Source: Desulfurococcales archaeon | Lineage (GTDB): Archaea > Thermoproteota > Thermoprotei_A > Sulfolobales > NBVN01 | Assembly: GCA_015523295.1 (NCBI GenBank) | Contig: WAKQ01000010.1 | Coordinates: 59,021-123,020 of the forward strand | Reading direction: 5' to 3' | DNA: 64,000 nt | Shown: in pieces, positions 2,634 to 56,181 of the stretch | Numbering within the stretch: the first letter of the stretch is position 1 | Layout: the number at the start of each line of letters is the position of its first letter | Made by a program: the position numbers and the translations under genes | Notes under the pieces: model-generated | Told to the model about the DNA's origin: nothing | Databases searched by the model: none | Seen by the model: the letters and a program-made list of their open reading frames with translations, nothing else

Positions 2634-4085
2634 TTAGTGGCGACGTTTGAGTGATGTAGTTAGAAGTATTCCTATTATACCTCCAACAAGTATAATTATT
2701 ATTGCTGGGATCAGGTGGTCTTTATACACTACGTTTACATGTTCTGGGTTTGATGATGAGTTAGCTAATGAGGTTTGCTGAGATGTTGTTGGGATGTTGG
2801 TGGTTCTAGACGAGCTATATGGTGTAATGGAAGTTGTGCTTGAGGGTGTGAATTCGCTTCCATTATTCAATTGAGGTTGGGTGGTACTTACAGCTGTTGA
2901 AGTGGTTGTGTTGAAACTAGTATGCGTTGTTGGCGTGGTCGTAGATGAGACGTTGATTCTTGATGAGTTTTGCGGCGGGGTTTCAGCAGTTAGCGCTTCC
3001 TTGATCAACTGGATATACTTGCTAATCTTAGGATAAAGTACTGTGCTGAGGTTCCCCGTCTTTAAGGCATTGAGGAGGTCTTCCGGTACGGAACCTTCAG
3101 GATACACTTCCAGTATTTCAGCATACCTGTAGAGACTTAACTCCTGCTTCAATTCTTCAACTTCCTTGCTAGTTACATTAGCCTCCGTGGTCTCACCTGT
3201 TATTATGGAGGGGTATTTAATCAATGCACCTGCCAGGAAGTCGAGTGATATCCATCCCTTGCCTGGAAGGTACATCAGCACATATGCATGCGGACCGGCA
3301 TTTATATAGGTGATGTACGAGCCTTCAACATCGAAGGTGGAGTTGAATGGGAGGTAGACATAGGAATACTGGATCTTCGCAGGTATGCCGTAGCCCCATA
3401 GGAGGTTAATGAGGACTCTTGACATGTCGTCGCAGTCGCCTGTCCTATTCTCCACGACGTCTTCGATGGAGCGCGGTAGGGCTGATGCACTGTATTTTAT
3501 ATAATATTGCCCGTAGATAAAGATAGCCGCAGCTACACCTAAGAAAGCTTTAGACACATTGCTTGGAAGGTAACTGTTCTTCTTTAGCCAAGACTCGAAG
3601 GCACTTCTAACTGTGGTGTTCACTATGGGTAACGGCTTCTTAATATATTTCGACGTTATCTCATGCGGAGTATTATTGTAGATCCCTGAAAAAATCAAGG
3701 GATTCTTCACTATCTCAAACACTAATCCTGAGATGTTCTTCACCTGCTGTGTTATTTTGAGGACCACATAGCCGTAGGTGTTATTGCTCATGTTCATCGC
3801 GTATGGCGGGGTATTGTTCACTACCCTCGCCTCACCCCCTATCGCTATAGTGGTGACCGTCTGGTTTACAGTGCCATCACTATAGTTTATCGGGGTCTCG
3901 AAGTAACCGGGGGACTCATTGTTGCTGTAAACCACGTACGCATAGTCAAAGTAGTAGAACACGTTCCTGCTTATTGAGTAGCTGGTCTGTCCTGCACCAC
4001 CACTGCTCACGTTTAATGAGAGTAAGAGAATAAAGAGGAGCAGTAAACTCATAGACTTGCTAAATACTGTGCGACTATCTTTCAA
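2634..4085 (-). CDS. Secreted transglutaminase-like (Cys-protease fold) protein with Ser/Thr-rich stalk and C-terminal TM anchor
   Basis: N-terminal signal-like segment (LLLLFILLLSLNVSS). Transglutaminase-core-like GDCDDMSRVLINLLWGYGIPA with a downstream His/Asp. About 90 aa of S/T/P-rich sequence, many NxS/T sequons, and a terminal hydrophobic helix followed by KRRH. Confidence 0.55.
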   Translation of the reverse strand: MKDSRTVFSKSMSLLLLFILLLSLNVSSGGAGQTSYSISRNVFYYFDYAYVVYSNNESPGYFETPINYSDGTVNQTVTTIAIGGEARVVNNTPPYAMNMSNNTYGYVVLKITQQVKNISGLVFEIVKNPLIFSGIYNNTPHEITSKYIKKPLPIVNTTVRSAFESWLKKNSYLPSNVSKAFLGVAAAIFIYGQYYIKYSASALPRSIEDVVENRTGDCDDMSRVLINLLWGYGIPAKIQYSYVYLPFNSTFDVEGSYITYINAGPHAYVLMYLPGKGWISLDFLAGALIKYPSIITGETTEANVTSKEVEELKQELSLYRYAEILEVYPEGSVPEDLLNALKTGNLSTVLYPKISKYIQLIKEALTAETPPQNSSRINVSSTTTPTTHTSFNTTTSTAVSTTQPQLNNGSEFTPSSTTSITPYSSSRTTNIPTTSQQTSLANSSSNPEHVNVVYKDHLIPAIIIILVGGIIGILLTTSLKRRH

Positions 4086-4153
4086 TACTGGATACCTTAA
4101 GAAAAAGGTATCTTAAGCCCCTTAAACTATTTTGCCTTCCTTGAACTGATAAC

Positions 4154-5089
4154 ATGATATGTTGGGGTGCGGTAATGGTGATGGATGAGTTCTCAGCTAT
4201 TAGGAGGTTCTTAAAGCCTCTTGCTGAAACATATAAGAAAGGCGGAATTGGCTTCATGGATGATGCGTATGCGATACGCTTAGGTGAAACCTTAGTATTC
4301 ATTAAGATTGACGGCACCTCAATTAAGTCATCAATGTATCCTTGGATGGGTTATGACGACCTAATCTATAGGGTGGCAGCTGGCGCCATAGTAGACGTTA
4401 TCGCTAAGGGTGGGAGGCCTACAGTCATTACCGCGTCTATTGGGTTACCAGCAGATGAGTTGCCTAAGTCATTAGATCCCTTAAGTAATGGTTTATCAAG
4501 GCTCATAGAGAGATACGGCCTTATTTACGGAGGCGGAGATCTCAACTCATCCATCGGAGATGGGTGGATTGATATAGGTGTATTAGGTTATGGGGACAAG
4601 TTTATCCCTAATAAACCTCTCAGACCTGGGGACAAGATCTTTATCACTGGCTGCCTGGGGTTATCTGCTATCCCAGCCTTAATTCATTACAAGGGCCTGG
4701 AAGATAAATATATTAACAGGGTGAAAGGGAGAGTTGTTAACCCACATATTCCAGTGGAATTTCTAAGCGTTAAGAATAAAGTAAGGGCATCCACTGACAT
4801 CAGCGATGGATTAGAATCCTTAAGGAAAGCCCTTAACTTAAGCGGTGTGGCACTAAAAATTTCTGAGGAACCCCCCCTCTGCAAGGAGGCAGTAGAGTTC
4901 GCAGAGATGTACAGTCTAACAGTAAGTGATATCTTAGGGTATTTGGGTGAGGAGTTCGTTATCGCTTATGTCAGCGAGGAAGGGAGACATTACCTTGGTG
5001 AGATAGTGGAAGGTCCTTCAGGCCAGATACTATATAAGGATAAGGTTTTAAGAGGGGGCTGGGACAACTTCCTCGGCTTCATGAAGTAG
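4154..5089 (+). CDS. thiL: Thiamine-monophosphate kinase (AIR-synthase/PurM-like fold)
   Basis: Motifs GFMDDAYAI...FIKIDG and GGGDLNSS, with a size typical of ThiL. The likely start is the internal ATG at 4175 or 4181 (MDEFSAI). Confidence 0.65.
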   Translation: MICWGAVMVMDEFSAIRRFLKPLAETYKKGGIGFMDDAYAIRLGETLVFIKIDGTSIKSSMYPWMGYDDLIYRVAAGAIVDVIAKGGRPTVITASIGLPADELPKSLDPLSNGLSRLIERYGLIYGGGDLNSSIGDGWIDIGVLGYGDKFIPNKPLRPGDKIFITGCLGLSAIPALIHYKGLEDKYINRVKGRVVNPHIPVEFLSVKNKVRASTDISDGLESLRKALNLSGVALKISEEPPLCKEAVEFAEMYSLTVSDILGYLGEEFVIAYVSEEGRHYLGEIVEGPSGQILYKDKVLRGGWDNFLGFMK

Positions 5090-9928: not shown

Positions 9929-10234
9929 GTGTGCGAGGACAAACCAGCTGTCGCGAAGTGCAAGATTTGTGGGAGAGAGGTCTGCGAGGATCATATAGCT
10001 GACGGCATATGCAGCGTGTGCAGGGACCTTATGGTTATGTATAAAGGAAAATTAAAACCTGCAGTAGGTAGGTGCCCCTTCTGCGGCCGTTTAATTTGCA
10101 GAGAATGCTCTGTGGAAATAGAGCCTGGAGTCAGAGTTTGCAAGGACTGTTTTCAGAAGCTTGACGAATATTTTAGAAAGTACCCGGTTTTAAGGGGATG
10201 TTACTCGAGATATCTGAGGGTGCTTAAAGCTTAA
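9929..10234 (+). CDS. Small Cys-rich zinc-finger protein (cross-brace / B-box-like plus a second CxxC cluster)
   Basis: C-x2-C-x8-C-x2-C-x4-C-x2-H-x5-C-x2-C pattern, then CPFC-x4-CREC-x10-CKDC. The first CxxC spans the annotated GTG, so the true start may lie upstream. Confidence 0.5.
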   Translation: MCEDKPAVAKCKICGREVCEDHIADGICSVCRDLMVMYKGKLKPAVGRCPFCGRLICRECSVEIEPGVRVCKDCFQKLDEYFRKYPVLRGCYSRYLRVLKA

Positions 10235-10269
10235 AACTTTATAATAGTAACTCACACCTAGGTGGTAGC

Positions 10270-10791
10270 ATGTCGTTTGCTGAAGCTGCGAAGATGATGG
10301 AAACCATTAATGAAAGGTTTAAGTCTACTAGGGAGGAGGCCGTAAAGGCTGTCAGCGCTCTCAAGATCTCAGCCTTTCATCTTCTAGGAGACTCCATATC
10401 TAGGCTTACAGAGGCTGTAGAGTACCTTTCGGAGATAGAGCGGGCAGCTGGAGTGAGCGGTACCGTTGGAAAAATATGTGACTCTTGGAACTACGTAAAT
10501 TATGAGAAGATCACTTCTGTAAGCAAACTGAAGCCTGCCCTAGCTTTGATGCATGACTCTGAAAAGAATCTTCTCAAGGTTTCTATGCCTGTTTTAGCCT
10601 TCGAGCTACAGCCTAGTAAGGCGTCAATAATCTATCGGGGTAATAGGATAGAAATACCCCTTACTTTGAAGGGTGTTGAGGAAAAAGCCGACCTCATTAA
10701 GGCCTTGGGTTCTAAGATCCTTTACCTAGTGGATGCGGTAAGCAGTAGGGTTGAGGCATGTGGGAAGATAAGGTATGGCGTAAGGATCTAA
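10270..10791 (+). CDS. Hypothetical protein
   Basis: 173-aa ORF with an ATG start just after the previous gene. I recognised no motif. Confidence 0.4.
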   Translation: MSFAEAAKMMETINERFKSTREEAVKAVSALKISAFHLLGDSISRLTEAVEYLSEIERAAGVSGTVGKICDSWNYVNYEKITSVSKLKPALALMHDSEKNLLKVSMPVLAFELQPSKASIIYRGNRIEIPLTLKGVEEKADLIKALGSKILYLVDAVSSRVEACGKIRYGVRI

Positions 10792-14677: not shown

Positions 14678-15640
14678 GTGAGAGAATATGAAGACACTGT
14701 TATTTACCTTGCCCTAAAGAGAGATAAGAAGGCATTGGCTAGGATAATCTCCTTGATTGAGAGAGATCCTGATAAGGCTACGTTATTGCTGAGGAAATTA
14801 TGGCCTAGAAACCCTCGTTCCCACGTAGTAGGGTTTACAGGTCCGGGGGGAGTTGGGAAGTCAACTCTAATATCATCAGTTATTAAATTACTCACAGATT
14901 TAGGGAAAAGTGTCGCTGTTCTGGCCATTGATCCCTCCTCGCCTATAAGCGGAGGGGCTTTGCTTGGTGACCGAGTGAGAATGAGGGATGTTAGGGGAGA
15001 TGTATTCATAAGGTCTATGAGTACGGCTGCTGAGGAGTCATTGCCATGGAAGGCCTTGATAGCGGTTGAGGTTTTAGAGGGGGTGGGCTTCGATTATATC
15101 CTGTTAGAAACTCCGGGCGTCGGTCAATTCAATGTTGAAATAATGAATGCTGTTGATACGGTAGTTTTAGTCTTAATGCCTGAATTAGGGGATGAGATAC
15201 AGTCGCTAAAGGCTGGTCTGATGGAGATAGGTCATATTTATGTGGTTAATAAGGCAGACCTTCCAGGAGCTGATTTAATGGCTTCCCAAATAGAGGCTTC
15301 AGTAAGTGGGGTGTTAGTAAATGGATGGAAACCATGCCTAGTCAAAACTATTGCTTTTAGTAAGGAAAGGGTACGTGGCCTTGTTGAAGCTCTTTTCAAG
15401 AGGGATGAATACTTGAGAAAGCGTACTGACCTCCTCCATAAAAAGAGGGCAAACAGATGGTTGCTTGAGGTAAGGCTCATTACGGAAGACACCTTCAAAA
15501 ATAAGCTTCACGCGTATCTATCGAAAGGCACTGTTATGAGAAATTTACTGAACGAAATCCTATCTAAAGGTCAGGACACGATAACGCTCTCGAATCTGGT
15601 TCTAAAGGAATTGAGTTCGATGATACAGGAAAATAAATAA
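14678..15640 (+). CDS. meaB: MeaB/ArgK-type G3E GTPase (methylmalonyl-CoA mutase accessory protein)
   Basis: P-loop GFTGPGGVGKSTLI, then DPSSPISGGALLGDRVRM, ETPGVGQ and NKADL. 320 aa. Confidence 0.85.
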   Translation: MREYEDTVIYLALKRDKKALARIISLIERDPDKATLLLRKLWPRNPRSHVVGFTGPGGVGKSTLISSVIKLLTDLGKSVAVLAIDPSSPISGGALLGDRVRMRDVRGDVFIRSMSTAAEESLPWKALIAVEVLEGVGFDYILLETPGVGQFNVEIMNAVDTVVLVLMPELGDEIQSLKAGLMEIGHIYVVNKADLPGADLMASQIEASVSGVLVNGWKPCLVKTIAFSKERVRGLVEALFKRDEYLRKRTDLLHKKRANRWLLEVRLITEDTFKNKLHAYLSKGTVMRNLLNEILSKGQDTITLSNLVLKELSSMIQENK

Positions 15641-15667: not shown

Positions 15668-15765
15668 GGGGCCGTAGTTTAGCTTGGGAGAATGCGGGGC
15701 TTGGGTCCTCACTCACACGGCAGGAACCCCCGTGGTCCGGGGTTCAAATCCCCGCGGCCCCACCA
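15668..15765 (+). tRNA. tRNA-Pro (UGG) with about 21-nt intron at 37/38 and encoded CCA
   Basis: Acceptor GGGGCCG/CGGCCCC plus A-CCA. Anticodon stem CGGGG/CCCCG with loop CUUGGG[intron 15706..15726]C. T arm CGGGG-UUCAAAU-CCCCG. Confidence 0.8.
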
Positions 15766-22202: not shown

Positions 22203-23297
22203 GTGGTAGTCACGAAGTTAACTCGTCAGGATATTGAAGACCTTGCTTTAGGCGCAACTGTTTTAGGTACTGGAGGGGGAGGCGATCCCTACATTGGTAA
22301 GTTGATGGCTATTCAAGCCCTCGAGAGAGGAGGCGAGATTGAGTTGATGGATCCTGATGTGGTTGATGATGACGCGTTTGTGGTGGCTGTGGCAGGGATG
22401 GGAGCCCCCGTAGTGATGATTGAGAAGACTCCTAGCGGCAAGGAAGCTGCTGCCTCACTAATTAGTTTAGAGAAGTACTTCGGTAGGAAGGCGGATTACA
22501 TCATAAGTATTGAGGCGGGGGGACTTAACTCGACAATACCCTTAGCAACGGCTGCTGAGCTGAAGAGGCCAGTTCTTGACGGGGATGGCATGGGGAGAGC
22601 ATTCCCTGAGCTGCAGATGGTAACCTTCCATCTTTATGGGGTGAAGGCGACACCGATGTCTATGGCTGACGAGAAAGGAAACTCAGTTATCCTCGATACC
22701 GTAGATAACTTCTGGGCTGAGAAGATCGCTAGGGCTATCACCGTGAAGTTTGGCGGTGTCGCCTGGATATCCATATATCCGATGAGTGGGAGAAAATACA
22801 AAGAGGCGGCAGTTAAATATTCCCTAACTAAAGAAATAGAGATTGGAAGAGCATTAAATGATGCCAAGAAGCAGGGAAAGAACCCGCTAGATGTTCTTCT
22901 TGACGTAACTCGAGGTTACCACCTTTTCACAGGAAAGATTGTTGACGTTGTGAGGAGAGCGACAGGTGGGTTTGCTAGAGGAGAGGCTGTCATAGAGGGT
23001 TTGGAGGATTTCAAAGGCTCTAAACTTGTGATCAGATTCCAGAATGAGAATCTCATAGCTATTAGGGATGGTGAAGTCCTGGCTTCAGTCCCTGATCTAA
23101 TAACCGTTGTAGACAAGGATAGTGCAAGGCCTATCACTACTGAGAGGCTTAAGTACGGATTGAGGGTCGCTGTATTAGGAATACCCTGCGATCCTAAATG
23201 GAGGAGTGAGAAGGCGTTAGAGGTTGTTGGCCCTAAGTACTTCGGATATGATATTGAGTACGTACCCATTGAGGAAGCTGTGAAAAAGTGGGGGTGA
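22203..23297 (+). CDS. DUF917-family protein
   Basis: N-terminal LGTGGGGDPYIGK motif and DGDGMGRAFPELQM. 364 aa. Translationally coupled to the next gene by a 10-nt overlap. Confidence 0.65.
   Translation: MVVTKLTRQDIEDLALGATVLGTGGGGDPYIGKLMAIQALERGGEIELMDPDVVDDDAFVVAVAGMGAPVVMIEKTPSGKEAAASLISLEKYFGRKADYIISIEAGGLNSTIPLATAAELKRPVLDGDGMGRAFPELQMVTFHLYGVKATPMSMADEKGNSVILDTVDNFWAEKIARAITVKFGGVAWISIYPMSGRKYKEAAVKYSLTKEIEIGRALNDAKKQGKNPLDVLLDVTRGYHLFTGKIVDVVRRATGGFARGEAVIEGLEDFKGSKLVIRFQNENLIAIRDGEVLASVPDLITVVDKDSARPITTERLKYGLRVAVLGIPCDPKWRSEKALEVVGPKYFGYDIEYVPIEEAVKKWG
22872..22925. repeat. 54-bp segment inside the DUF917 gene, duplicated exactly in inverted orientation at 26352..26405
   Basis: cagggaaagaacccgctagatgttcttcttgacgtaactcgaggttaccacctt is the exact reverse complement of 26352..26405. 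Confidence 0.9.
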
Positions 23298-26048: not shown

Positions 26049-26127
26049 TGGTGGGCCCGCGGGGATTTGAACCCCGGACCTCCGCCGTGTAAGGGCGGCA
26101 TCCTAGACCAGGCTAGACGACGGGCCC
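26049..26127 (-). tRNA. tRNA-Val (UAC), intron-less, encoded CCA
   Basis: The minus strand reads GGGCCCG-UC-GUCU-AGCCUGGUCUA-GGAU-G-CCGCC-CUUACAC-GGCGG-AGGUC-CGGGG-UUCAAAU-CCCCG-CGGGCCC-A-CCA. Confidence 0.9.
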
Positions 26128-26351: not shown

Positions 26352-26405
26352 AAGGTGGTAACCTCGAGTTACGTCAAGAAGAACATCTAGCGGGTTCTTT
26401 CCCTG
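26352..26405. repeat. Orphan inverted copy of a 54-bp internal DUF917 gene fragment, in non-coding DNA
   Basis: Exact reverse complement of 22872..22925. The corresponding reading frame is closed by stops on both sides. Confidence 0.9.
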
Positions 26406-41267: not shown

Positions 41268-41780
41268 CTATTCTTTGCTTATCTCAGCAACTTTTGTCGT
41301 CCCTTTCCTGAGCTCCTCAGCGGCTTTCATTGCAGCTTTTACGATGTTCACGTAGCCCGTGCATCTGCAAAGGTTTCCTCTTATATAGTCCCTGATCTCC
41401 TCCTCGGTTGGATTGGGATTCTCTTTAAGTAGCTTATCTATCATTATGACGAAGCCTGGGGTGCAGTAACCACATTGGACACCGGCCTCCTCTATAAGAG
41501 CCTTCTGCACTAAAGTTAGCTCCCTGCTTTTCGCAAGGCCTTCCACGGTAGTCACTTCATGACCGTCTACGTCAACTGCCAGAGTAAGGCATGAGAGGAC
41601 CGGCTCGCCATCAAGTAACACGGTGCAGGCCCCACATTCACCAATTCCGCAAACATATTTGGGTCCTGTATATCCGAACTTCTCCCTGAGCAGGTTTAGC
41701 AGTAGCTCGTTAGGCTCGACCTCTGTCCTGACTTTTTGCCCGTTAAGCGTGAACTCTATAGGTATCTTCATTTCATCCAC
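41268..41780 (-). CDS. Molybdopterin hydroxylase small subunit, [2Fe-2S] (CoxS/CutC type), cluster 1
   Basis: CGIGECGACTV, QCGYCTPGF and NLCRCTGY motifs. Confidence 0.85.
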   Translation of the reverse strand: MDEMKIPIEFTLNGQKVRTEVEPNELLLNLLREKFGYTGPKYVCGIGECGACTVLLDGEPVLSCLTLAVDVDGHEVTTVEGLAKSRELTLVQKALIEEAGVQCGYCTPGFVIMIDKLLKENPNPTEEEIRDYIRGNLCRCTGYVNIVKAAMKAAEELRKGTTKVAEISKE

Positions 41781-42706
41781 CCCTTAACAACCCTCTCGTG
41801 AGAAAGGATGAGCGCGTCCTCAACTATAACTTTAGAGACTTCTCTACGGTAAAACGCTGTTGACCTGACGTCGTCGATAGGGCTTATTTCCGTCTCAACA
41901 AGCTTTACGTTCTCCCTTATGACCTCGGGGGTGAAGGGTTTGCCTTTTAAGGCCTCTTCTGTTTTCCAAGCTCGTACTGGTGTGGGAGCAGCCGACCCTA
42001 TTGCTATCCTAGCGAACTTAATTCTGCCGTCCTCCACCTTCACTGCAGTTGCTGCACTTATTTTAGCTAGGTCCATTGCCGTCCTGGCCACCTTGATGAA
42101 CGCTGAACCTGTTCCTGGTTCAGGCTTAGGTATTATTATCTCTTTCAGGAGCTCGTCAGGCCTCATCACTGTCTTACCAGGTCCTTTGAAGAACTGGGTT
42201 ATTGGTACTTCTCTCTCCCCTTCCCTGCTCGCTAGTATTAGGCGTGCTTCAAGAACCATCAGCGGCGGGGCGCTGTCAGCTGCCGGAGAAGCATTACACA
42301 AATTACCCCCAATAGTGGCCATGTTCCTTATTTGAGTTCCTCCCATAGCCTTAACTGCATCGTAGAGTGCAGGGAAGTACTTCATTATTACGTCAGATCT
42401 CTCAAGCTCCCTCCACTTGGTGAGGGCCCCTATACGTACTTCACCGCCTTCATCGCGTATGTAGCTGAGTTCCTTAAGCTTCTTGATGTTGATCACGTAT
42501 TTCGGCTCGACAACCCTCATCTTCATCTTCACTAGCAGGTCAGTGCCACCTGCAAGAACTTTTGCCTCACTACCATACTTATTCAGTAATTCCAATGCCT
42601 CCTCAAGCGATGAAGGTGCGAAGTATTCGAACCTTACTGGTATTATATGCGTATTATACAGGTTATGTCTTGAAGGCCTTATATTGACTTGGGTCATGTC
42701 TTTCAC
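41768..42706 (-). CDS. Molybdopterin hydroxylase medium subunit, FAD-binding (CoxM/CutB type), cluster 1
   Basis: AGGTDL and GGNLCNASPAADS motifs, with C-terminal ISPIDDVRSTAFYRR. 312 aa. Confidence 0.85.
   Translation of the reverse strand: MKDMTQVNIRPSRHNLYNTHIIPVRFEYFAPSSLEEALELLNKYGSEAKVLAGGTDLLVKMKMRVVEPKYVINIKKLKELSYIRDEGGEVRIGALTKWRELERSDVIMKYFPALYDAVKAMGGTQIRNMATIGGNLCNASPAADSAPPLMVLEARLILASREGEREVPITQFFKGPGKTVMRPDELLKEIIIPKPEPGTGSAFIKVARTAMDLAKISAATAVKVEDGRIKFARIAIGSAAPTPVRAWKTEEALKGKPFTPEVIRENVKLVETEISPIDDVRSTAFYRREVSKVIVEDALILSHERVVKGWMK
42128..42319. repeat. Near-identical tract shared with the paralogous FAD-subunit gene at 50070..50261 (inverted orientation)
   Basis: 42179..42319 matches 50070..50210 at 139/141 nt, and both differences are synonymous. 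42128..42157 matches 50232..50261 at 30/30. The 21 nt between these blocks and the flanks outside them are strongly diverged. Confidence 0.9.
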
Positions 42707-45057
42707 CTCCCTTTCTTCTTAAGGGCTTCAAGGATTCTTTCTGGGGTTATGGGCAGCTCGTAGAACCGCACTCCTATCGCGTTGTAGATAGCGTTAGCGA
42801 CGGCCCCAGCAACCGAGTTAAGTGCGGCTTCACCCAGTCCCTTAGCTCCGTGAGGTCCTGTGGGTTCGTAGGTGTGAGCGAATATAACCTGGAAGTCATC
42901 TAATTTAGGCATGTCTGGCGCTGTCAGGATCTTGTAGTCGGTTATGAAGCCCTTATTCGTTAGCTCACCTGTTCTGGGATCGTATATCGTGTCTTCTAAT
43001 GTAGCCATCCCCCAACCCTGGGCAAATCCTCCATGGAGCTGTCCTGCAGCATAGTCTGGGTTTATCACGGTTCCAATATCGGCGCCTGCAATTACCTTAA
43101 CTGGCCTCACCTTCCCCGTGTATGTATCTACCTCGACCTCAACAAAGTATACTGTGAAGCTGGGCGGTGCAGCCTTAGACCTGTAGGTGACTGTAGTGGA
43201 TATTGTTCCCCAGTTTCTTTGCCATGCTATAGTTGCGAGGTCTTTAAGCGTTATCCTCATCTGCGGGTTATCTCTGACATACACCACTGCCTGCCCAAGT
43301 TCCTTATCATAGCCAAGCTCAAGCATGTCCTGATTTACCGCTTTATTCAGGACTCTTATGGCATAGTTGAATATCTTATTCTTTAATTCTCTAGCTGCCT
43401 GAACTGCAGCACCGCCTCCCACATAGGTACCTCTCGACGCATGCGTACATACGTCGTATAGCGTTGTTTGAGTGTCAGACCACACAAGGTTTATGAGGTC
43501 AGGTGGAACCCCAAGCTCCTCAGCAATTATCTTTACATGAGCGTCAAGTGTACCGCCTCCATGATCCTGTAACGCGGTTATATAGTCAATGGTTCCATCT
43601 TCATTCAACTTCAGTATAGCGCCTGTGTAGTCAATTGTCTCGCCGGAGATAGGCCCTCCTGCACCTGAGGTGTGGAAAGACCTGCCGACGCCTATACCTC
43701 TCCTATATCTCCCCGTCTTCTCAGAGGGTGGTCTCCTCCTCTCCCAGCCGATTAGTTCTTTACCCCTCTGCAGGAGTTCAGGCACTCCATCAGATCTTAT
43801 AATGCTCTTCACGGTAGGACCCTGTCCCCAGAATATATCGCCCTTACCCACATAGTTCTTAAGGCGGAACTCAACCGGGTCAATCCCAAGTTCCTCAGCC
43901 ATCTCATCTATTAGGGTCTCAACAGCCCAAGAGACCTGTGGTGCACCGTAACCTCTAAAGGCGCATGTTGGTACTTTATTTGTGTAGACCGCTTTACCAA
44001 CATATCTTATGTTCTTCCATTTATAGAGGGAGACAAACCATCCTAAAGCAGTTCCTAGTAATGGATATGCCTGAATCTGATGTGCCCCTATGTCCATGAT
44101 GTTCTCAAGTTCTCCGGCAATAAGCGTGCCATCACTTTTAGCTCCAGCACGTATCTTGAAATGCATCTGGTACGCAGCATGGTCATAAATGTCTTCTTCA
44201 CGTGTCATTGATATTTTAACGGGTTTCCTAGCCTTCAGGCATAATGCAACGCTAATTGGCACTACCGGATTTATCTGGATGCTTGACCCGAAGGAGCCTC
44301 CTATAGGCACCTTCACTACGTTGATCTTGCTCATAGGGATGTCAAAGATCTGGCTGATCAGAATTCTAGTGTTATGGATTGTTTGGGTCGTGGAGTATAT
44401 GGTGATGCTCCCATCACTATGGGGTATACAGACAGATGTCTTCGGCTCGAGTTGCATGTGGTACCTTCTGTTAGTTCTGAACCTTCTCTCAAGAACCACG
44501 TCTGCTTCCTTCAGTGCCTTATCTACATCACCCTCACTGTACTCGAGAGTGCATCCAACATTGTTTTTAACATCGATCCACTCATCTCCCTTCAATATCC
44601 TCTTATGTATTAATGGGGCGCTAGGTGACATCGCTTCGAAAGGATCGAGTATAGGTTCATACACTCTTTCGAATTCAACCTTTATTGCCTCAAGAGCTCT
44701 CTGGGCTGCTTCCTCCGTAGGTGCAGCGACCGCCGCGATCGCGTCTCCTAAGTAGCGAGGGTGCTTAGTTAGGACTCTGTAATCCTTGTAGGTCACTTCA
44801 AAGATGCTGACTAATCTAGGATTGAAGATTTTGTCAGGAACATCGTCAGGCGTTATCACGACAGCGCCCATCCTCTCAGCTTCTGAGGTGTCTATCCTCT
44901 TAACGTCTGCGAATGCGTAAGGACTCTTAAAGACCCTGCCAACCAGCATTCCCGGAACATAGATATCGGAAGAGAACTTCAGGGTTCCAGTTACCTTAGG
45001 GATACCATCCTTCCTAATTGTTTTCTTACCAATGAAGATATGTTTCGGTTCCTCCAA
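42703..45057 (-). CDS. Molybdopterin hydroxylase large subunit (xanthine dehydrogenase / aldehyde oxidoreductase / CutA family), cluster 1
   Basis: 784 aa. Family motifs include FRGYGAPQ, EVEVDTYTGKVR and GPHGAKGLGEAA. Confidence 0.85.
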   Translation of the reverse strand: MEEPKHIFIGKKTIRKDGIPKVTGTLKFSSDIYVPGMLVGRVFKSPYAFADVKRIDTSEAERMGAVVITPDDVPDKIFNPRLVSIFEVTYKDYRVLTKHPRYLGDAIAAVAAPTEEAAQRALEAIKVEFERVYEPILDPFEAMSPSAPLIHKRILKGDEWIDVKNNVGCTLEYSEGDVDKALKEADVVLERRFRTNRRYHMQLEPKTSVCIPHSDGSITIYSTTQTIHNTRILISQIFDIPMSKINVVKVPIGGSFGSSIQINPVVPISVALCLKARKPVKISMTREEDIYDHAAYQMHFKIRAGAKSDGTLIAGELENIMDIGAHQIQAYPLLGTALGWFVSLYKWKNIRYVGKAVYTNKVPTCAFRGYGAPQVSWAVETLIDEMAEELGIDPVEFRLKNYVGKGDIFWGQGPTVKSIIRSDGVPELLQRGKELIGWERRRPPSEKTGRYRRGIGVGRSFHTSGAGGPISGETIDYTGAILKLNEDGTIDYITALQDHGGGTLDAHVKIIAEELGVPPDLINLVWSDTQTTLYDVCTHASRGTYVGGGAAVQAARELKNKIFNYAIRVLNKAVNQDMLELGYDKELGQAVVYVRDNPQMRITLKDLATIAWQRNWGTISTTVTYRSKAAPPSFTVYFVEVEVDTYTGKVRPVKVIAGADIGTVINPDYAAGQLHGGFAQGWGMATLEDTIYDPRTGELTNKGFITDYKILTAPDMPKLDDFQVIFAHTYEPTGPHGAKGLGEAALNSVAGAVANAIYNAIGVRFYELPITPERILEALKKKGR

Positions 45058-45163: not shown

Positions 45164-46504
45164 ATGAGCGGAGGAAGCATCCTACTTAAAGGAGGGATTC
45201 TGATAACTCCCTCGGCGTCCATCAAAGCTGACATAAAAGTTGTCGATGGTAAGATCGCTGAAATAGGGGCAGCGCTAAACAATGCAGGCGTTGAAGAGGT
45301 TCTTGACGTATCAGGAATGTACGTTTTTCCCGGTGTTGTCGATGAGCACGTGCATATGAGGGAACCCGGACTTGAGTATAAGGATGACTTCACCCATGGT
45401 ACTGCAGGAGCTGCTGTAGGGGGTGTTACTACAGTCTTGGAAATGCCTAACACTAAGCCACCTGTTGATTCAGCAACCATATTGGAGGAAAAGAAAAGGC
45501 TCCTCTCGCAGAAGGCAAACGTGGATTTTGGGCTCTACGGCGTCATCCATAATACTAATGCACATAACTTTGATGATATAGTTGCCGCAGGTGCAGTCGG
45601 TTTCAAAATATTCTTAGGACCCACTACAGGCAACATACCACCTCCCGACGATGGGACATTATATGAGGTGCTAGAGAAATCAGCTAAGTATGATGTCCCA
45701 CTAGCTTTCCACGCTGAAAACGCTGACCTGGTGAAGTACTTCACCCAGAAAGTGAGATCAAGCGGAAGAACAGATCCTTCTGCACACACCGATGCCAGAC
45801 CTCCTATATGTGAGGAGGAGTCGATAAGGAAGTTAATTATACTATCTAAGTGGACGAATGGGAGGGTTCATATAGTACACATAGCGGCTAAGGAGGGTGT
45901 CGAGCTAGTGAGGGAGGCTAAGCATATGGGATATAAAGTCACGGGGGAGACATGTCCACATTACTTACTACTAAACACCGAGGATTACAAGAAGTATGGG
46001 ACGGCGATAAAGGTGAACCCCCCTATAAGAGATAGGGAACATCAAGAGGCCTTATGGAAAGGAGTATTGGACGGTACGATATATACTCTAGGTTCAGATC
46101 ATGCACCACATTCAGCAGAAGAAAAGAAGGGAGACATTTGGAAATGTGCAGCAGGCTTCACAGGGGTGCAAACCTTTCTCCCCCTGATGCTCGACCAAGC
46201 GCTTAAGGGGAGACTCCCGATAAATAAGATCCCCCAACTAATGAGCGAAAACCCTGCAAAGCTCTTCAGGCTATGGCCTAGGAAGGGCGCAATCATGGTT
46301 GGAAGTGATGGCGACTTTGCAATTGTAGACCCCAATGGCACAACAACCATTACTAAGGAATGGCTGATTGCTAAATATCCAATAACTCCCTATATAGGGT
46401 GGAAACTGAAGGGAAGTATCAGATACACTATTCTCAGAGGGCAGATAATAGCGAAGGATGGCAAGCTCATTCAACCTAGGAAAGGCACTTTCATTAAACC
46501 TTAA
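45164..46504 (+). CDS. pyrC: Dihydroorotase (cyclic amidohydrolase superfamily)
   Basis: VDEHVHMREPG and EMPNTKPP motifs typical of type-I PyrC, FKIFLG (the carboxylated-Lys region), SDHAPH. 446 aa. Confidence 0.7.
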   Translation: MSGGSILLKGGILITPSASIKADIKVVDGKIAEIGAALNNAGVEEVLDVSGMYVFPGVVDEHVHMREPGLEYKDDFTHGTAGAAVGGVTTVLEMPNTKPPVDSATILEEKKRLLSQKANVDFGLYGVIHNTNAHNFDDIVAAGAVGFKIFLGPTTGNIPPPDDGTLYEVLEKSAKYDVPLAFHAENADLVKYFTQKVRSSGRTDPSAHTDARPPICEEESIRKLIILSKWTNGRVHIVHIAAKEGVELVREAKHMGYKVTGETCPHYLLLNTEDYKKYGTAIKVNPPIRDREHQEALWKGVLDGTIYTLGSDHAPHSAEEKKGDIWKCAAGFTGVQTFLPLMLDQALKGRLPINKIPQLMSENPAKLFRLWPRKGAIMVGSDGDFAIVDPNGTTTITKEWLIAKYPITPYIGWKLKGSIRYTILRGQIIAKDGKLIQPRKGTFIKP

Positions 46505-47385: not shown

Positions 47386-49728
47386 ATGAGTGCAGCAGAA
47401 GATCCGTATACTTTAATGGAGAAATGGCTTAAGGCGAAGGAGTTCTTGGTGGTTGGCAAGGGCGTTAGGAGAGCTGACGCTATTGAAAAAGCTTTAGGAA
47501 TGGCTAGGTACGTTGAAGATTTCTATATGCCAGGCCATATGTTATTTGTTAAGCAGGTGTTAAGCACTGAACCCCATGCAAGGATATTAGGTGTGGATGC
47601 TTCGAAAGCCTTAGAGATTCCAGGTGTTGAGGGGGTATTCACAGCAAAGGATATTCCTGGGGAAAATCAGGTCGGCTATGCTCTGCCTGATCAGCCTCTA
47701 TTAGCTGATGGCAAGGTCAGGTTTGTCGGCGATCTTGTGGCCCTCGTAGCCGCCAGGGATTTCGATACAGCGATAAGGGCTGCTGAAGAGGTCAGGATTA
47801 AATATGAGCCTCTGCCCTATGTTCTAGATCCTCTTGAAGCTATGAAGAGAACCGACGTTTTAGTTCATGAGGAGGTCGGCTCTAACATAGCTTTTAGAAC
47901 CAAGGTAAGAAAGGGCAATGTGGAGGAAGGGTTTGCTAAGTCAGACGTGATCGTAGAGAACGAATATAGGACCCATCATCAAGACCACCTTTACTTAGAG
48001 ACAGAGGGCGCGTTAGCCCTTCCAGAGCTGGGAGACAGGCTTACTGTCATATCGGCAGGCCAGTATCCCCACCTAGTGAGGGCCATAGTGTCGAGGGTTG
48101 TAGGCCTTCCAGAGAGCCATGTTAAGGTGATAATACCCTATATGGGAGGTGGTTTCGGCGGTAAGGATGATGAGGGCCCCTTAGTTGCTGCTAAGGCGGC
48201 GTTGGTTGCAAGGCTTACCGGGAAGCCGTCCTTCCTTCTCTACACAAGGGAAGAATCCCTCATAATGCATCCTAAGAGAGAAGCTACTGTGATTAAGTAC
48301 AAGAGTGGCGCGTCAAAGGATGGAAAGCTGCAGGCCATTGATGTGCAAATAATTCATGATACAGGTGCATTCACTAATAGAGGACCTTTCATATTGTGGA
48401 GGGCGACAGTTCACGCTTCAGGGCCATATAAGGTGCCGCACGCAAAGGTAGACGGATACTGCATATATACCAACAAAGTATACCAAGGTTCCTATAGGGG
48501 ATTCGGAAATCCATCCGTGCAGTTTGCAGCCGAGGCCCAAATGGATAGACTTGCTGAGAAGCTTGGAATGGATCCAGTGGACTTCCGCCTTAAGAACCTT
48601 CTGAGACCTGGAGATACAACAATCACTAATCAGCTCCTAGACCATTCCGTAGGTGTGGCTGATGCAGTTGCAAAACTAGCTGAAACGGCTGGGTGGAGAG
48701 AGAAGAGGGAGAGGTACTCTAAGGAAAACGGAGGAAGGTATAGGAAAGGTATAGGGATAGGAGTCGCTTGGCACGGCATAAGCACCTCCAGAGGCGTGCC
48801 TGACTGGTCTAACGCCTTAGTGAAGATAGAGAAGGACGGGTCGGTTAGTGTGCATACAGGCATTGTTGAGATGGGGCAGGGCTCTCCCGTAAGCTCCCAC
48901 CGTCAAATAGCTGCCGAGATCTTAGGTGCACCCATAGATCTGGTGACTGTTGACTTCGGCACCACTGACGCTCCTGACACTGGGGCGACGCATGCATCAA
49001 GAGGTACAAGTATCGGTGCTATAGGCGTCTATGTAGCGTCAGCTAAGCTTAGAGAGAGGCTAAACAGGCTGGCGGCTGAGCTCCTCGAGACATCACCTGA
49101 CGACATAGTGATTAAGGATGGTAAGGCTTATGCTAGGAGCAATCCCAGCAAGAGTATTAGTTGGAAAGACCTCATCAAGGAGGCTTACGCTAGAGGAGTG
49201 GAGATGAGCGCGACAGGCTACTTCTTCCTACCTAAGGGTAAGTTCGATGACCAGAAAGGGCAGGGCTATGCCTATCCAGCCTTCAGTTATGTTGCTATGA
49301 TAGCTGAGGTCGAGGTAGATACATACACGGGGAAGGTGAGGGTTCTGAGGATATGGCCTGGCCTGGCTGCGGGGAAGATAATAAATCCAACTCAGGTAGA
49401 AGGGCAGGTAGAAGGAGCTGCAGTTCAAGGAATGGGCTATGCCCTAATGGAGCAGTTCGTCTTCGACGATAAGGGCAGGATACTAAACGCTGATATGACT
49501 GACTATGTGATCCCGACAGCTTTAGATGCGCCTGAAATAATGAAGCCTGTATATGTTGAAGACATATTCAAGTATGGACCCTTCGGAGCTAAGGGTGTGG
49601 GTGAGATGGCATTGATACCGGCACCCGCAGCAATAGCTAATGCAGTGTCGAATGCCTTAGGGATCAAGGTTACTAAGCTACCTCTAACCTCAGAGAATGT
49701 TTACTTCCTGATTAAGGGGAAGAGATAG
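47386..49728 (+). CDS. Molybdopterin hydroxylase large subunit, cluster 2
   Basis: 780 aa. Motifs GGGFGGKDD, YRGFGNPS, EVEVDTYTGKVR and GPFGAKGVGEMA. Confidence 0.85.
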   Translation: MSAAEDPYTLMEKWLKAKEFLVVGKGVRRADAIEKALGMARYVEDFYMPGHMLFVKQVLSTEPHARILGVDASKALEIPGVEGVFTAKDIPGENQVGYALPDQPLLADGKVRFVGDLVALVAARDFDTAIRAAEEVRIKYEPLPYVLDPLEAMKRTDVLVHEEVGSNIAFRTKVRKGNVEEGFAKSDVIVENEYRTHHQDHLYLETEGALALPELGDRLTVISAGQYPHLVRAIVSRVVGLPESHVKVIIPYMGGGFGGKDDEGPLVAAKAALVARLTGKPSFLLYTREESLIMHPKREATVIKYKSGASKDGKLQAIDVQIIHDTGAFTNRGPFILWRATVHASGPYKVPHAKVDGYCIYTNKVYQGSYRGFGNPSVQFAAEAQMDRLAEKLGMDPVDFRLKNLLRPGDTTITNQLLDHSVGVADAVAKLAETAGWREKRERYSKENGGRYRKGIGIGVAWHGISTSRGVPDWSNALVKIEKDGSVSVHTGIVEMGQGSPVSSHRQIAAEILGAPIDLVTVDFGTTDAPDTGATHASRGTSIGAIGVYVASAKLRERLNRLAAELLETSPDDIVIKDGKAYARSNPSKSISWKDLIKEAYARGVEMSATGYFFLPKGKFDDQKGQGYAYPAFSYVAMIAEVEVDTYTGKVRVLRIWPGLAAGKIINPTQVEGQVEGAAVQGMGYALMEQFVFDDKGRILNADMTDYVIPTALDAPEIMKPVYVEDIFKYGPFGAKGVGEMALIPAPAAIANAVSNALGIKVTKLPLTSENVYFLIKGKR

Positions 49729-49739
49729 GGGGTGAGAGC

Positions 49740-50626
49740 ATGTTCTACAGGATACCTGAAATAAACTACATATATGTCTCAAAACTTGATGAAGCCCTAG
49801 AGGTCTTACACACGCTGGACAACGCGAGAGTTCTAGCGGGTGGTACTGACCTAGTGATGGATCTGAAAATAGGCCGTATAAGGCCGGAGACCATTGTAGA
49901 CATATCTAGGGTTGACGAGCTTAAGTACATTAAAGATGAGGGGGATTATCTAAGGATCGGTGCTCTAACCACTCTTCAAGATATAGTGGAGTCAAGCCTT
50001 GTAAGGGCTAAAGCTCCTGTACTTGTAAAGGCTGTGAATGAGATGGCCTCATGGCAAGTCCGGAATGTTGCCACTATTGGGGGTAATTTGTGTAATGCTT
50101 CTCCGGCAGCTGACAGCGCCCCGCCGCTGATGGTTCTTGAGGCACGCCTAATACTAGCGAGCAGGGAAGGAGAGAGAGAAGTACCAATAACCCAGTTCTT
50201 CAAAGGACCTAGGAAAACTGAGCTCAGGAAGGACGAGCTCCTGAAAGAGATAATAATACCTTATGAGAGGGGTAGCGGGCAGCACTATATTAAGCTGGGA
50301 AGGAGGGATGCGTTCACTCTCTCCATAGTTTCAGTAGCGGCTTTAGTTAAGGTGAGTAATGGAAAGTTCAGCGATGTGAGAATAGCGCTGAACTCTGTGG
50401 CTCCAACACCTGTAAGAGCCTATGATGCTGAGAACGCATTAAAGGGTAGGGAAGTGAATCTAGAGAATATTGAGAATGTGTCGAAGCTGGTGCTCAACTC
50501 CATATCCCCCCAATAACTGACGTCAGGGCTTCAGCTGAGTACAGGAAAGAGATGTCAGTGGTTTTAACTCGTGATGCATTACTAGCTGCGTTAAAGGATT
50601 TAGGCATTAACTTAGGAGGTGAGTAA
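49740..50626 (+). pseudogene. Molybdopterin hydroxylase FAD-binding medium subunit, cluster 2, interrupted by a frameshift at a C6 run
   Basis: The annotated frame stops at 50514..50516 after ...LNSISPQ. The -1 frame continues as ITDVRASAEYRKEMSVVLTRDALLAALKDLGINLGGE* (to 50626). This is the conserved C-terminus of the family; compare ISPIDDVRSTAFYRRE in cluster 1. Confidence 0.7.
50070..50261. repeat. Partner of the near-identical tract at 42128..42319
   Basis: See 42128..42319. The shared tract encodes ATIGGNLCNASPAADSAPPLMVLEARLILASREGEREVPITQFFKGP, identical in both paralogs. Confidence 0.9.
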
Positions 50627-50628
50627 GC

Positions 50629-51096
50629 ATGGAGGTATTCTTCAAACTAAATGGTCAGCCTGTTAAAGTTGATGTAAAGCCTAACGAGGTGCTGCTAGAT
50701 GTCCTTAGGCTAAAGCTGGGGATCAAGAGTGTCAAGAGGGGATGTGAGAGGGCGGAGTGCGGAACCTGCACAGTACTTCTTGACGGCAAGCCAACATATT
50801 CATGCATGATCCTAGCGCCCTACGTTAATGGAAGGGAAGTAGCAACCATAGAATACCTGAAGGAAAACGGGGAGCTTAAGCCACTGGTTGAGGCCTTCGC
50901 TGATGTAGGAGCTGTCCAATGCGGATTCTGCACACCTGGGTTCCTCTTAACTGTCTATGCCTTCCTGAAGAAGAACCCCAGTCCTACTAGGGAGGAGATA
51001 AAGAAAGCTATAGAGGGTAATCTCTGCAGATGCACAGGCTATAAGAAGATAATCGAAGCTATAGAGCTTGCCAGTAAGAAGATGAAGTCCGGCTAG
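50629..51096 (+). CDS. Molybdopterin hydroxylase small subunit, [2Fe-2S], cluster 2
   Basis: CERAECGTCTV, QCGFCTPGF and NLCRCTGY motifs. A GGAGGTGA Shine-Dalgarno-like sequence lies upstream. Confidence 0.85.
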   Translation: MEVFFKLNGQPVKVDVKPNEVLLDVLRLKLGIKSVKRGCERAECGTCTVLLDGKPTYSCMILAPYVNGREVATIEYLKENGELKPLVEAFADVGAVQCGFCTPGFLLTVYAFLKKNPSPTREEIKKAIEGNLCRCTGYKKIIEAIELASKKMKSG

Positions 51097-54717: not shown

Positions 54718-55451
54718 GCGGTGGGGAGGAAATCCTGAAAGTCGAAAACGTGGTTAAAAGGTTCGGGGGGATTACAGCCGTCAACAGAGTATCCTTTAAT
54801 GTGAGGAAAGGCGAGATATTAGGGCTTATAGGCCCTAACGGTGCCGGTAAGACGACGCTATTTAACTGCATAACAGGTGTTTACAGACCTGAGGAGGGCA
54901 GGATAGTATTCTTAGGTGAAGATATCACTGGCCTGCAACCACACGTAATTGCAAGGAAGGGCATTGTAAGGACATGGCAAAAGGTCCGCCCATTTAAGAA
55001 GATGACAGTTCTCGACACAGTTACCGTGGGAGCACTGCTTAGAACAAACAGCGTTACAGAAGCTAAGAGAAAGGCCGAAGACATCCTTAAATTTATCGAG
55101 TTCCCTGAGGATAAGTTCGAGGTTATGGGGAAGGAGATAACATTGATAGAGCATAAGCTGGTGGACCTTGCAAGAGCTATAGCAACAGAGCCAACATTAC
55201 TTCTCCTAGATGAGGTGGCGGCAGGGCTAAGACCTAATGAGATGGAGAGGCTTGCGTCAATACTTAAGAAGGTTAATAAAGAGAGAAACCTGACGATGAT
55301 TGTCGTGGAGCACGTCATGCGTTTTGTTATGGGCTTAAGTCAGAGGATGATCGTGATGCATGAGGGTGAGAAGATAGCTGAAGGCACACCTCAGGAAATA
55401 GCGAATAATCCGAGAGTGATAGAAGCGTACTTAGGCACTAAGCCTTTGTAA
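54714..55451 (+). CDS. livG: ABC ATP-binding protein (LivG family)
   Basis: Walker [13 protein letters not shown], Walker B LLLLDE, C-terminal [10 protein letters not shown]. Confidence 0.9.
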
Positions 55452-55467: not shown

Positions 55468-56181
55468 ATGGCTTCCATGCTAGAGTTGAAGAATGTCCAC
55501 GCAGGCTACGGGGAGTTTAGAGTCCTACATGGAGTGAATATGAGGGTAGATAAAGGTGAGATAGTCGCTCTTGTAGGCCCTAACGGTGCCGGTAAAACGA
55601 CGACTCTGAGGACTATACTTAATATGACTACCCGTTATGAAGGGGAAATAAAATTCCAGGGCAGGGACATTACCAGGATACCTACTCATAAGATAGTTGA
55701 GGAAGGCATAACGATGGTTCCTGAAGGGCGAGGGATTTTCAACCCACTCACAGTCTATGAGAACCTCTTAGCGGGTGCTTACACGAAGAGGGCTCAAGAG
55801 AAGATTGAGGACTCATTAGAGTTCGTGTTCTCCCTCTTCCCAAGACTTAAGGAAAGGAAGAACCAGATAGCCGGCACCCTCTCAGGCGGTGAGGCGCAGA
55901 TGCTGGCAATAGCTAGGGCGCTGATGGCAAGGCCTACGCTCCTAATGTTCGATGAGCCAAGCCTAGGCCTGGCACCTAAGATAGTGCTGGAGGTCTTCGA
56001 CGTTGTTGTTAAGTTAAGGGATTCGGGAGTGACTGTCCTCATAGTGGAGCAGCACGTGAAGAACTCATTAGAGGTTGCGGATAGGGCCTATGTTATGGAG
56101 ATGGGTCAGATAGTTCTCGAAGGTGAGGGTAAGGCGTTACTGAAGGATGAGAGGCTGAAGAAAGCCTACCTGATAATCTAA
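55468..56181 (+). CDS. livF: ABC ATP-binding protein (LivF family)
   Basis: Walker [12 protein letters not shown], signature LSGGEAQML, Walker B LLMFDEPS, C-terminal KKAYL. Confidence 0.9.
   Translation: MASMLELKNVHAGYGEFRVLHGVNMRVDKGEIVALVGPNGAGKTTTLRTILNMTTRYEGEIKFQGRDITRIPTHKIVEEGITMVPEGRGIFNPLTVYENLLAGAYTKRAQEKIEDSLEFVFSLFPRLKERKNQIAGTLSGGEAQMLAIARALMARPTLLMFDEPSLGLAPKIVLEVFDVVVKLRDSGVTVLIVEQHVKNSLEVADRAYVMEMGQIVLEGEGKALLKDERLKKAYLII

Follow-up and report, generated by a model that had tools for sequence, protein, structure and literature searches.

Recurrent, segment-limited sequence transfer between paralogous flavoprotein genes of two molybdenum hydroxylase clusters in Desulfurococcales-like archaea

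We describe a short tract shared by two otherwise divergent genes, M1 and M2, in a 64,000-nucleotide (nt) stretch of DNA from an uncultured Desulfurococcales-like, hot-spring archaeon (contig WAKQ01000010.1, positions 59,021 to 123,020; the whole stretch is called the window below). The two genes encode the flavin adenine dinucleotide (FAD)-binding medium subunits of two divergently oriented gene clusters of the xanthine-dehydrogenase/carbon monoxide (CO)-dehydrogenase family. The tract reflects recurrent, non-allelic transfer among relatives, confined to a segment that is mosaic inside and has its start at or near an invariant FAD-binding motif. Repeated ectopic gene conversion within the chromosome, between paralogues that duplicated long ago, is the explanation that we favor, with a probability of roughly 0.86.

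In the window, M1 and M2 match over 192 nt at 93.75%. The match consists of block A (139/141 nt identical), a native patch of 21 nt, and block B (30/30). The extent of the tract and these counts had been given in a preliminary description made from the sequence alone, and they were correct on recount; the two differences in block A are indeed synonymous, GAA/GAG (Glu) and GGG/GGA (Gly). The 21-nt patch, which the same description called fully diverged, is present, but 11 of its 21 positions are identical, which is the background of the gene pair. Just past the residues FFKGP, M1 reads GGT AAG ACA GTG ATG and M2 reads AGG AAA ACT GAG CTC. Uniformly high identity along both genes, as expected of a simple recent duplication, was not found: outside the tract, the DNA of M1 and M2 is about 50% identical. 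At shared residues with degenerate codons, the codon is the same in 54 of 56 cases in the tract versus 32 of 98 outside it (binomial P = 4e-24). The longest exact run between the genes is 71 nt, while 10,000 permutations, made over sites or over codon columns, gave at most 27 to 33 nt, and an independent repeat search of the window also recovers the tract pair. Identity at synonymous sites with such abrupt ends exceeds what conservation of the protein yields.

The extent of the tract is polymorphic among strains that are 99.9% identical, and conversion is ongoing. A 287-kb metagenome scaffold, L001, aligns with 22.3 kb of the window at 99.89% identity, with 23 substitutions and one 2-nt indel. 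Twelve of the 23 substitutions fall within positions 50141 to 50231 of the window, and all 12 change M2 to the M1 state, equal to the M1 sequence of L001 itself. Ten of them lie in the patch (50211 to 50231), so that the patch and both synonymous differences are erased and M1 and M2 of L001 match over 192 nt at 100%. A third haplotype comes from L002, the third assembly of this species, whose base is of the M2 type at 50141 and of the M1 type at 50171 (G/G, compared with A/G in L001). In the window, the patch is native in each copy. The M1 patch matches M1 orthologues at 15 to 18 of 21 positions and M2 orthologues at 10 to 12 of 21; the M2 patch matches M2 orthologues at 16 of 21. The M2 gene of L029, which is 83% identical in DNA outside the tract, also has an M1-type patch, with synonymous changes of its own; conversion across the patch is therefore natural and unlikely to be an effect of assembly alone.

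We compared relatives by codon alignments and by self-comparison of M1 and M2 within each genome. The named relatives are metagenome-assembled genomes (MAGs) of Desulfurococcales and Zestosphaera. A search of genome contigs gave two useful loci, L003 and L004, and a scan of metagenome contigs with M1 gave only relatives of at most 47% identity and no further strains or lineages. Within genomes, M1 and M2 match over 155 nt at 98% in L004/L025 (one MAG), over 188 nt at 94.7% in L028/L027 (one metagenome; a 47-codon block is 100% identical), over 83 nt exactly in L022 (82% over the 47-codon block), and over 156 nt exactly in Zestosphaera (L051 to L054). In L055 the exact match is 223 nt long (L055 positions 4147 to 4369 and 10173 to 10395) and shifted upstream, covering residues 75 to 148; it ends where the middle of the window tract lies. 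L021, which has the same synteny, has no tract: the tract region is 68% identical with a longest run of 10 nt, and the same-codon fraction, 15/42 inside versus 36/99 outside (P = 0.59), is at background.

In converted lineages with a full-length tract, the two copies are 98 to 100% identical within a genome, whereas the tract is only 62 to 88% identical between lineages. Outside the tract, paralogues are 50 to 57% and orthologues 63 to 83% identical. The tract thus groups by genome and the flanks group by paralogue, a pattern of concerted evolution confined to part of a gene. We surveyed 23 M1/M2 protein pairs, each assigned to one genome (19 with both genes on one contig and 4 paired by sample or shared tract; the pairing of P0124 with P0004 is unverified), and 8 of them are fully identical over the 47-residue tract. 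L022 has an identical run of 28 residues and L055 one of 74 residues, while unconverted pairs share only an invariant motif of about 20 residues.

Large-subunit identities place the window first with L003 and then with L004 and L028, followed by L021 and L022, and Zestosphaera outermost. L003 keeps a native M1 tract (VYEAKV...EFFTGP), whereas M1 of the window has M2-type residues; M1 of the window was therefore converted after the split from L003. The tract of L004/L025 is 13% different from that of L028/L027, yet each is 99 to 100% identical internally, so conversion went on after their divergence. L051 and L053 are distinguished by a V/A change inside the tract, and in each genome M1 and M2 agree at this site. 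Independent or repeated homogenization has affected at least five further lineages, each with its own tract sequence, extent, or donor signature. Comparison of strains and relatives, which the preliminary description had proposed, thus shows a tract that recurs with lineage-specific sequence, with L021 as a tract-free control. The description had read the tract as recent, patchy, non-reciprocal recombination between inverted paralogues; patchy recombination between inverted paralogues is supported, but it is not one recent event. The clusters of Zestosphaera are direct (L1-M1-S1, amidohydrolase, L2-M2-S2), with cluster 1 as a whole oriented opposite to that of the window's clade, and the tract is present there too. 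Inverted orientation is therefore not essential.

Transfer appears to have gone in both directions. Homogenization itself implies that transfer was non-reciprocal, and the 12 changes of L001 copy M1 into M2; for the tract of the window, the donor is read from residue signatures. In the 3' half of its tract, M1 of the window departs from native M1 orthologues by M2-like residues (VL, ARL, and FFKGP; VLEARL...QFFKGP). The lineages of the window, L004, and L028 carry M2-like residues in the tract; L022 and Zestosphaera carry M1-like ones, which implies transfer from M1 to M2 in these two.

The large subunits probably hold a second micro-conversion. L1 and L2 of the window share an exact inverted match of 37 nt, which the repeat search also detected and which the preliminary description did not mention, and both copies carry codons (GTC..ACG GGG AAG GTG AGG) found in no other lineage. 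In L004/L025, the large subunits have an exact run of 26 nt at the same position. No shared tract was found in the small-subunit pair of the window, S1/S2.

The start of the tract coincides with the motif that is best conserved in the family (about 20 residues, invariant in all pairs), and purifying selection on this motif, codon bias, or an RNA or regulatory element might in principle keep the DNA identical. The identity at synonymous sites, however, exists only within a genome, and many synonymous differences separate the tracts of different lineages. Moreover, unconverted L021 has the same protein motif, and its same-codon fraction is at background level. Codon bias and protein selection were rejected on these two grounds, and an RNA element was rejected because shuffled sequences fold better than the tract RNA (z = +1.97), which also has no Rfam match. 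The statement of the preliminary description that selection on the protein cannot explain the identity is borne out by the codon counts in the window and by L021, and we give such explanations almost no credence. A single ancient conversion, inherited by descent and accompanied by exchange of alleles between strains, would fit the common 3' boundary (after FFKGP) and the M2-like tract of the window, L004, and L028 lineages, which form one clade. The differences between the window and L001 would then stem from ordinary homologous recombination with M2 alleles of other strains. Re-import from another strain could also in principle account for the native M2 patch of the window; the nearest M2 relative, L029, has an M1-type patch. 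A single old event cannot, however, yield 98 to 100% identity within genomes while lineages differ by 12 to 27% in the tract. The M1 tract is native in L003, the closest relative of the window; the tracts of Zestosphaera and L022 are M1-like and that of L055 lies elsewhere in the gene; and all 12 clustered differences of L001 equal the M1 sequence of that genome. We regard a single event as very unlikely.

All data are short-read assemblies, and assemblers might have merged or cross-threaded the paralogues to give an identity that exists in no real genome. Once present, the tract does hamper assembly. In L002, a scaffold gap of 10 N lies within it (L002 positions 4356 to 4365, corresponding to about 50193 of the window), after which the sequence starts again at window position 49864, and chimeric M genes that switch at the tract occur only on short contigs (1.5 to 6.4 kb). 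Unconverted copies, however, share exact runs of at most 14 nt, below any assembly k-mer, and a de Bruijn graph therefore cannot join unconverted copies into a tract; this also speaks against the assembly chimera that the preliminary description had itself raised. The tract recurs with lineage-specific sequences across projects and contig-naming styles (SPAdes-type NODE contigs, scaffold records, and NCBI MAGs), and contigs of 26 to 287 kb cover both copies, each of which has its correct unique flanks there. Three independent long contigs, L022 (26.6 kb), L001 (287 kb), and that of the window, span both converted copies, as do the contigs of Zestosphaera (L051 to L054) and L055, while the tract-free lineage, L021, assembles in the same synteny. 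An origin of the tract in assembly or binning is highly improbable.

Under repeated gene conversion, strand invasion or template switching would let M1 pair with M2 around the invariant FAD-binding motif (ATIGGNLCNASPAAD.APPL), and a heteroduplex of a few hundred bases would form. In Sulfolobus acidocaldarius, heteroduplexes extend over hundreds of base pairs and uncoordinated short-patch conversion breaks strings of donor markers (Mao and Grogan 2012, PMC3367456); MutS and MutL are naturally absent in hyperthermophilic archaea, according to the same work. Mismatches between M1 and M2 may likewise be resolved by uncoordinated short-patch excision and refilling. One paralogue would be copied onto the other non-reciprocally, with unconverted islands left behind, such as the 21-nt patch. 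The high identity of an existing tract, together with strong divergence just beyond it, may then confine later conversions to the same bounds, which would explain the recurring 3' boundary. The segment would evolve in concert while the rest of the two genes stays about 50% identical.

Several points weigh against this explanation. Unconverted copies are 61 to 73% identical with exact runs of 8 to 14 nt, and the first conversions must have begun there. Such seeding would be very inefficient in organisms with mismatch repair. The proposal also leaves without explanation why conversion recurs here and not at other conserved motifs, for example in the small subunits. The donor direction relies on residue signatures, which leave the 5' third of the window tract without a donor; the DNA of the 3' half is about equally far from native M1 (50/75) and M2 (52/75) references, and the closest M2 reference, L029, is itself partly converted. 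Finally, all sequences are short-read metagenome assemblies or MAGs in which linkage of tract and flanks comes from contigs, not reads, and assembly could have contributed to the complete identity in L001 and to the haplotype of L002.

The features of the locus are listed in Table 1. By domains and neighbors, M1 and M2 are CoxM/CutM/XdhB-type medium subunits of molybdenum hydroxylases. Their Pfam matches to FAD_binding_5 and CO_deh_flav_C have E values of 1e-55 to 1e-57, and the nearest solved structure to M1 is CutM of CO dehydrogenase (1ffu_C, E = 3e-52). An alternative start of M1 is GTG at 42706; the version of 309 amino acids (aa) is also called in L001. Cluster 1 (S1-M1-L1) occupies the minus strand and cluster 2 (L2-M2-S2) the plus strand. 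No NCBIfam equivalog cut-off was reached, which leaves the substrates of the enzymes without assignment. Protein identity is 34% for L1/L2, 48% for S1/S2, and 43% for M1/M2 outside the tract, and the duplication is ancient. The synteny of aminotransferase, carbamoyltransferase, S1-M1-L1, amidohydrolase, small open reading frame (ORF), L2-M2-S2, and ATP-binding cassette (ABC) transporter is kept in relatives. The amidohydrolase between the clusters had been named pyrC in the preliminary description. It passes the dihydroorotase cut-off (pyrC_multi, 362.6 bits against 279.05), but it passes the allantoinase cut-off as well (404.7 bits against 357.85), and the name is uncertain.

Table 1. Genes of the two molybdenum hydroxylase clusters in the window and the segments shared between them
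Feature	Positions	Strand	Remarks
M1, FAD-binding medium subunit, cluster 1	41768-42697	minus	Pfam FAD_binding_5 and CO_deh_flav_C; 309 aa from ATG
M2, FAD-binding medium subunit, cluster 2	49740-50626	plus	Pfam FAD_binding_5 and CO_deh_flav_C
L1, molybdopterin-binding large subunit, cluster 1	42703-45057	minus	Pfam Ald_Xan_dh_C, MoCoBD_1, MoCoBD_2
L2, molybdopterin-binding large subunit, cluster 2	47386-49728	plus	Pfam
S1, 2Fe-2S small subunit, cluster 1	41268-41780	minus	Pfam
S2, 2Fe-2S small subunit, cluster 2	50629-51096	plus	Pfam
Cyclic amidohydrolase, allantoinase or dihydroorotase type	45164-46504	plus	between the inverted tracts; NCBIfam
Tract block A, M1 copy (141 nt), ATIGGNLCNASPAADSAPPLMVLEARLILASREGEREVPITQFFKGP	42179-42319	minus	139/141 with 50070-50210
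Tract block A, M2 copy	50070-50210	plus	differs from M1 at 50141 (G) and 50171 (A)
Native M1 patch, GKTVMRP	42158-42178	minus	unconverted in the window; 11/21 with M2 patch
Native M2 patch, RKTELRK	50211-50231	plus	overwritten by the M1 patch in L001
Tract block B, M1 copy (30 nt), DELLKEIIIP	42128-42157	minus	30/30 with 50232-50261
Tract block B, M2 copy	50232-50261	plus	30/30 with 42128-42157
Micro-tract, L1 copy (37 nt, exact), EVEVDTYTGKVR	43105-43141	minus	37/37 with 49305-49341
Micro-tract, L2 copy	49305-49341	plus	37/37 with 43105-43141

In the window, M2 is frameshifted by a run of six C residues (50506 to 50511), with a stop codon at 50514 to 50516 and a product of 258 aa, whereas L001 has four C residues at this run and an intact gene of 294 aa. 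Past the run, the frame of the window stays intact to 50626, and the sequence is still conserved. A real inactivating slippage mutation, a sequencing error, and a slippage-prone site are each possible.

Inverted copies of a tract could recombine by crossing over. All loci of the inverted-arrangement clade that span both clusters (the window, L001, L021, L022, and L055) have the same orientation, and no contig spanning both clusters shows the segment between them inverted. Eight of 239 homologues were flagged for N- and C-terminal parts that class differently, all on the short contigs mentioned above. Five are unambiguous chimeras whose type changes at the tract: P0113, P0174, P0192, and P0200 (M1 N-terminal and M2 C-terminal part) and P0222 (the reciprocal form). 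They come from four lineages, with P0192 and P0200 in the same one. P0198 is a mosaic, M1 with an internal M2 segment, and P0213 and P0229 are ambiguous. The locus of P0113, L030 (4.3 kb), is 99.1% identical to L004 on the M1 side and 97.0% identical to L025 on the M2 side, with an overlap in the tract (3240 to 3394). Its junction, in which L1 is followed by the M1 N-terminal part, the tract, the M2 C-terminal part, and S2, is expected after inversion and equally after a wrong turn of an assembler. The reciprocal chimera, P0222, belongs to another lineage and lies on a 1.7-kb contig. Chimeric M genes could thus be real products of inversion or deletion or path switches of assemblers. No recombinase gene was found in or beside the segment: between the repeats lie L1, the amidohydrolase, a 99-aa ORF without family match, and L2, and the genes flanking both clusters have metabolic or transporter Pfam domains.

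It is conceivable that the shared segment is a selected swap point and more than a by-product of recombination. If so, exact inverted repeats of 140 to 220 nt would let the cell invert the 7.7-kb segment, as the preliminary description had suggested for the inverted copies, or delete it in Zestosphaera, where the repeats are direct. Hybrid operons (L1 with an M1 N-terminal/M2 C-terminal gene and S2, and the reciprocal) would re-pair the subunits of two molybdenum enzymes. In a related reading, selection may maintain homogenization because both flavoproteins must fit a common partner. Chimeras with exactly these junctions and the recurring 3' boundary fit a swap point, but misassembly or mere mechanics could also account for them; we consider a selected swap point a long shot.

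Other repeats occur elsewhere in the window. An exact inverted match of 54 nt links about 22872 to 22925, inside an S-Me-THD-like gene (22203 to 23297), with about 26352 to 26405, in non-coding DNA between tRNA-Val (26049 to 26127) and an HD-domain gene. A tRNA-Pro at 15668 to 15765 probably contains an intron, given its length of 98 nt; over its final 33 nt it matches the 3' end of this tRNA-Val, on the opposite strand, at 97% identity. Around the Walker A region, two neighboring ABC ATPase paralogues have 51 nt in common at 86% identity (54807 to 54857 and 55552 to 55602). At the same spot in L022, the match is exact over 32/32 nt (14982 to 15013 and 15726 to 15757). The stretch shared by the ABC ATPases may be another small conversion tract.

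Among described cases, the nearest is that of mtrA-1 and mtrA-2 in Methanococcales and Methanomicrobiales, where, in separate lineages, long-lasting conversion has homogenized one domain (Wang et al. 2015, PMC4632066). In the parts of that paper on which we draw, the likeness lies in archaeal paralogues of an ancient duplication that are homogenized recurrently in one segment and differ in the rest. Unlike mtrA-1 and mtrA-2, which as described there share one operon, M1 and M2 belong to two separate three-gene clusters, inverted in this clade, and to another gene family, and their tract is much shorter (83 to 223 nt), mosaic inside, and polymorphic among near-identical strains. A survey of rare, long-lasting, recurrent concerted evolution in prokaryotes, a class into which M1 and M2 fit, likewise reported paralogues within genomes that are closer than orthologues, in several lineages and in subunits of complexes (Wang and Chen 2018, PMC6053082). 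In its abstract and selected passages, the survey follows this pattern gene by gene, whereas only about one-sixth of the M gene is involved here. The words "xanthine," "molybd," and "carbon monoxide" are absent from the main text of the survey.

The alternation of converted (141 nt), unconverted (21 nt), and converted (30 nt) sequence resembles the short discontinuous patches seen in S. acidocaldarius, a hyperthermophilic crenarchaeon (PMC3367456). Unlike that work, in which exogenous DNA was introduced by transformation at pyrE between near-identical sequences, the exchange between M1 and M2 is ectopic and homeologous, was read from natural sequences, and concerns a different archaeal order. 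Our literature search found no description of gene conversion in archaeal genes of the xanthine-dehydrogenase family. The tufA and tufB genes of Salmonella and Escherichia coli are near-identical over their full length, whereas the flanks of the M1/M2 tract are about 50% identical, so that crossovers give chimeric genes. For these inverted tuf paralogues, Abdulkarim and Hughes are said to have found both conversion and inversion in 1996, and for the crenarchaeal thermosome (chaperonin) paralogues, Archibald and Roger reportedly described in 2002 repeated partial conversion, mostly in conserved regions.

The M1/M2 tract is a fresh example of an already known process, segment-limited gene conversion. 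With its mosaic structure, bidirectional transfer, and ends that vary among strains, it is a natural counterpart, in uncultured hyperthermophilic archaea, of the laboratory result in Sulfolobus. That conversion seems to start from such low identity and short runs bears on how much homology archaea without MutS and MutL need. Tracts of this kind break or mis-join short-read assemblies at the locus, which matters for the curation of MAGs, and they distort phylogenies of CoxM/XdhB-type subunits. They may also create chimeric flavoproteins that are still encoded by intact genes.

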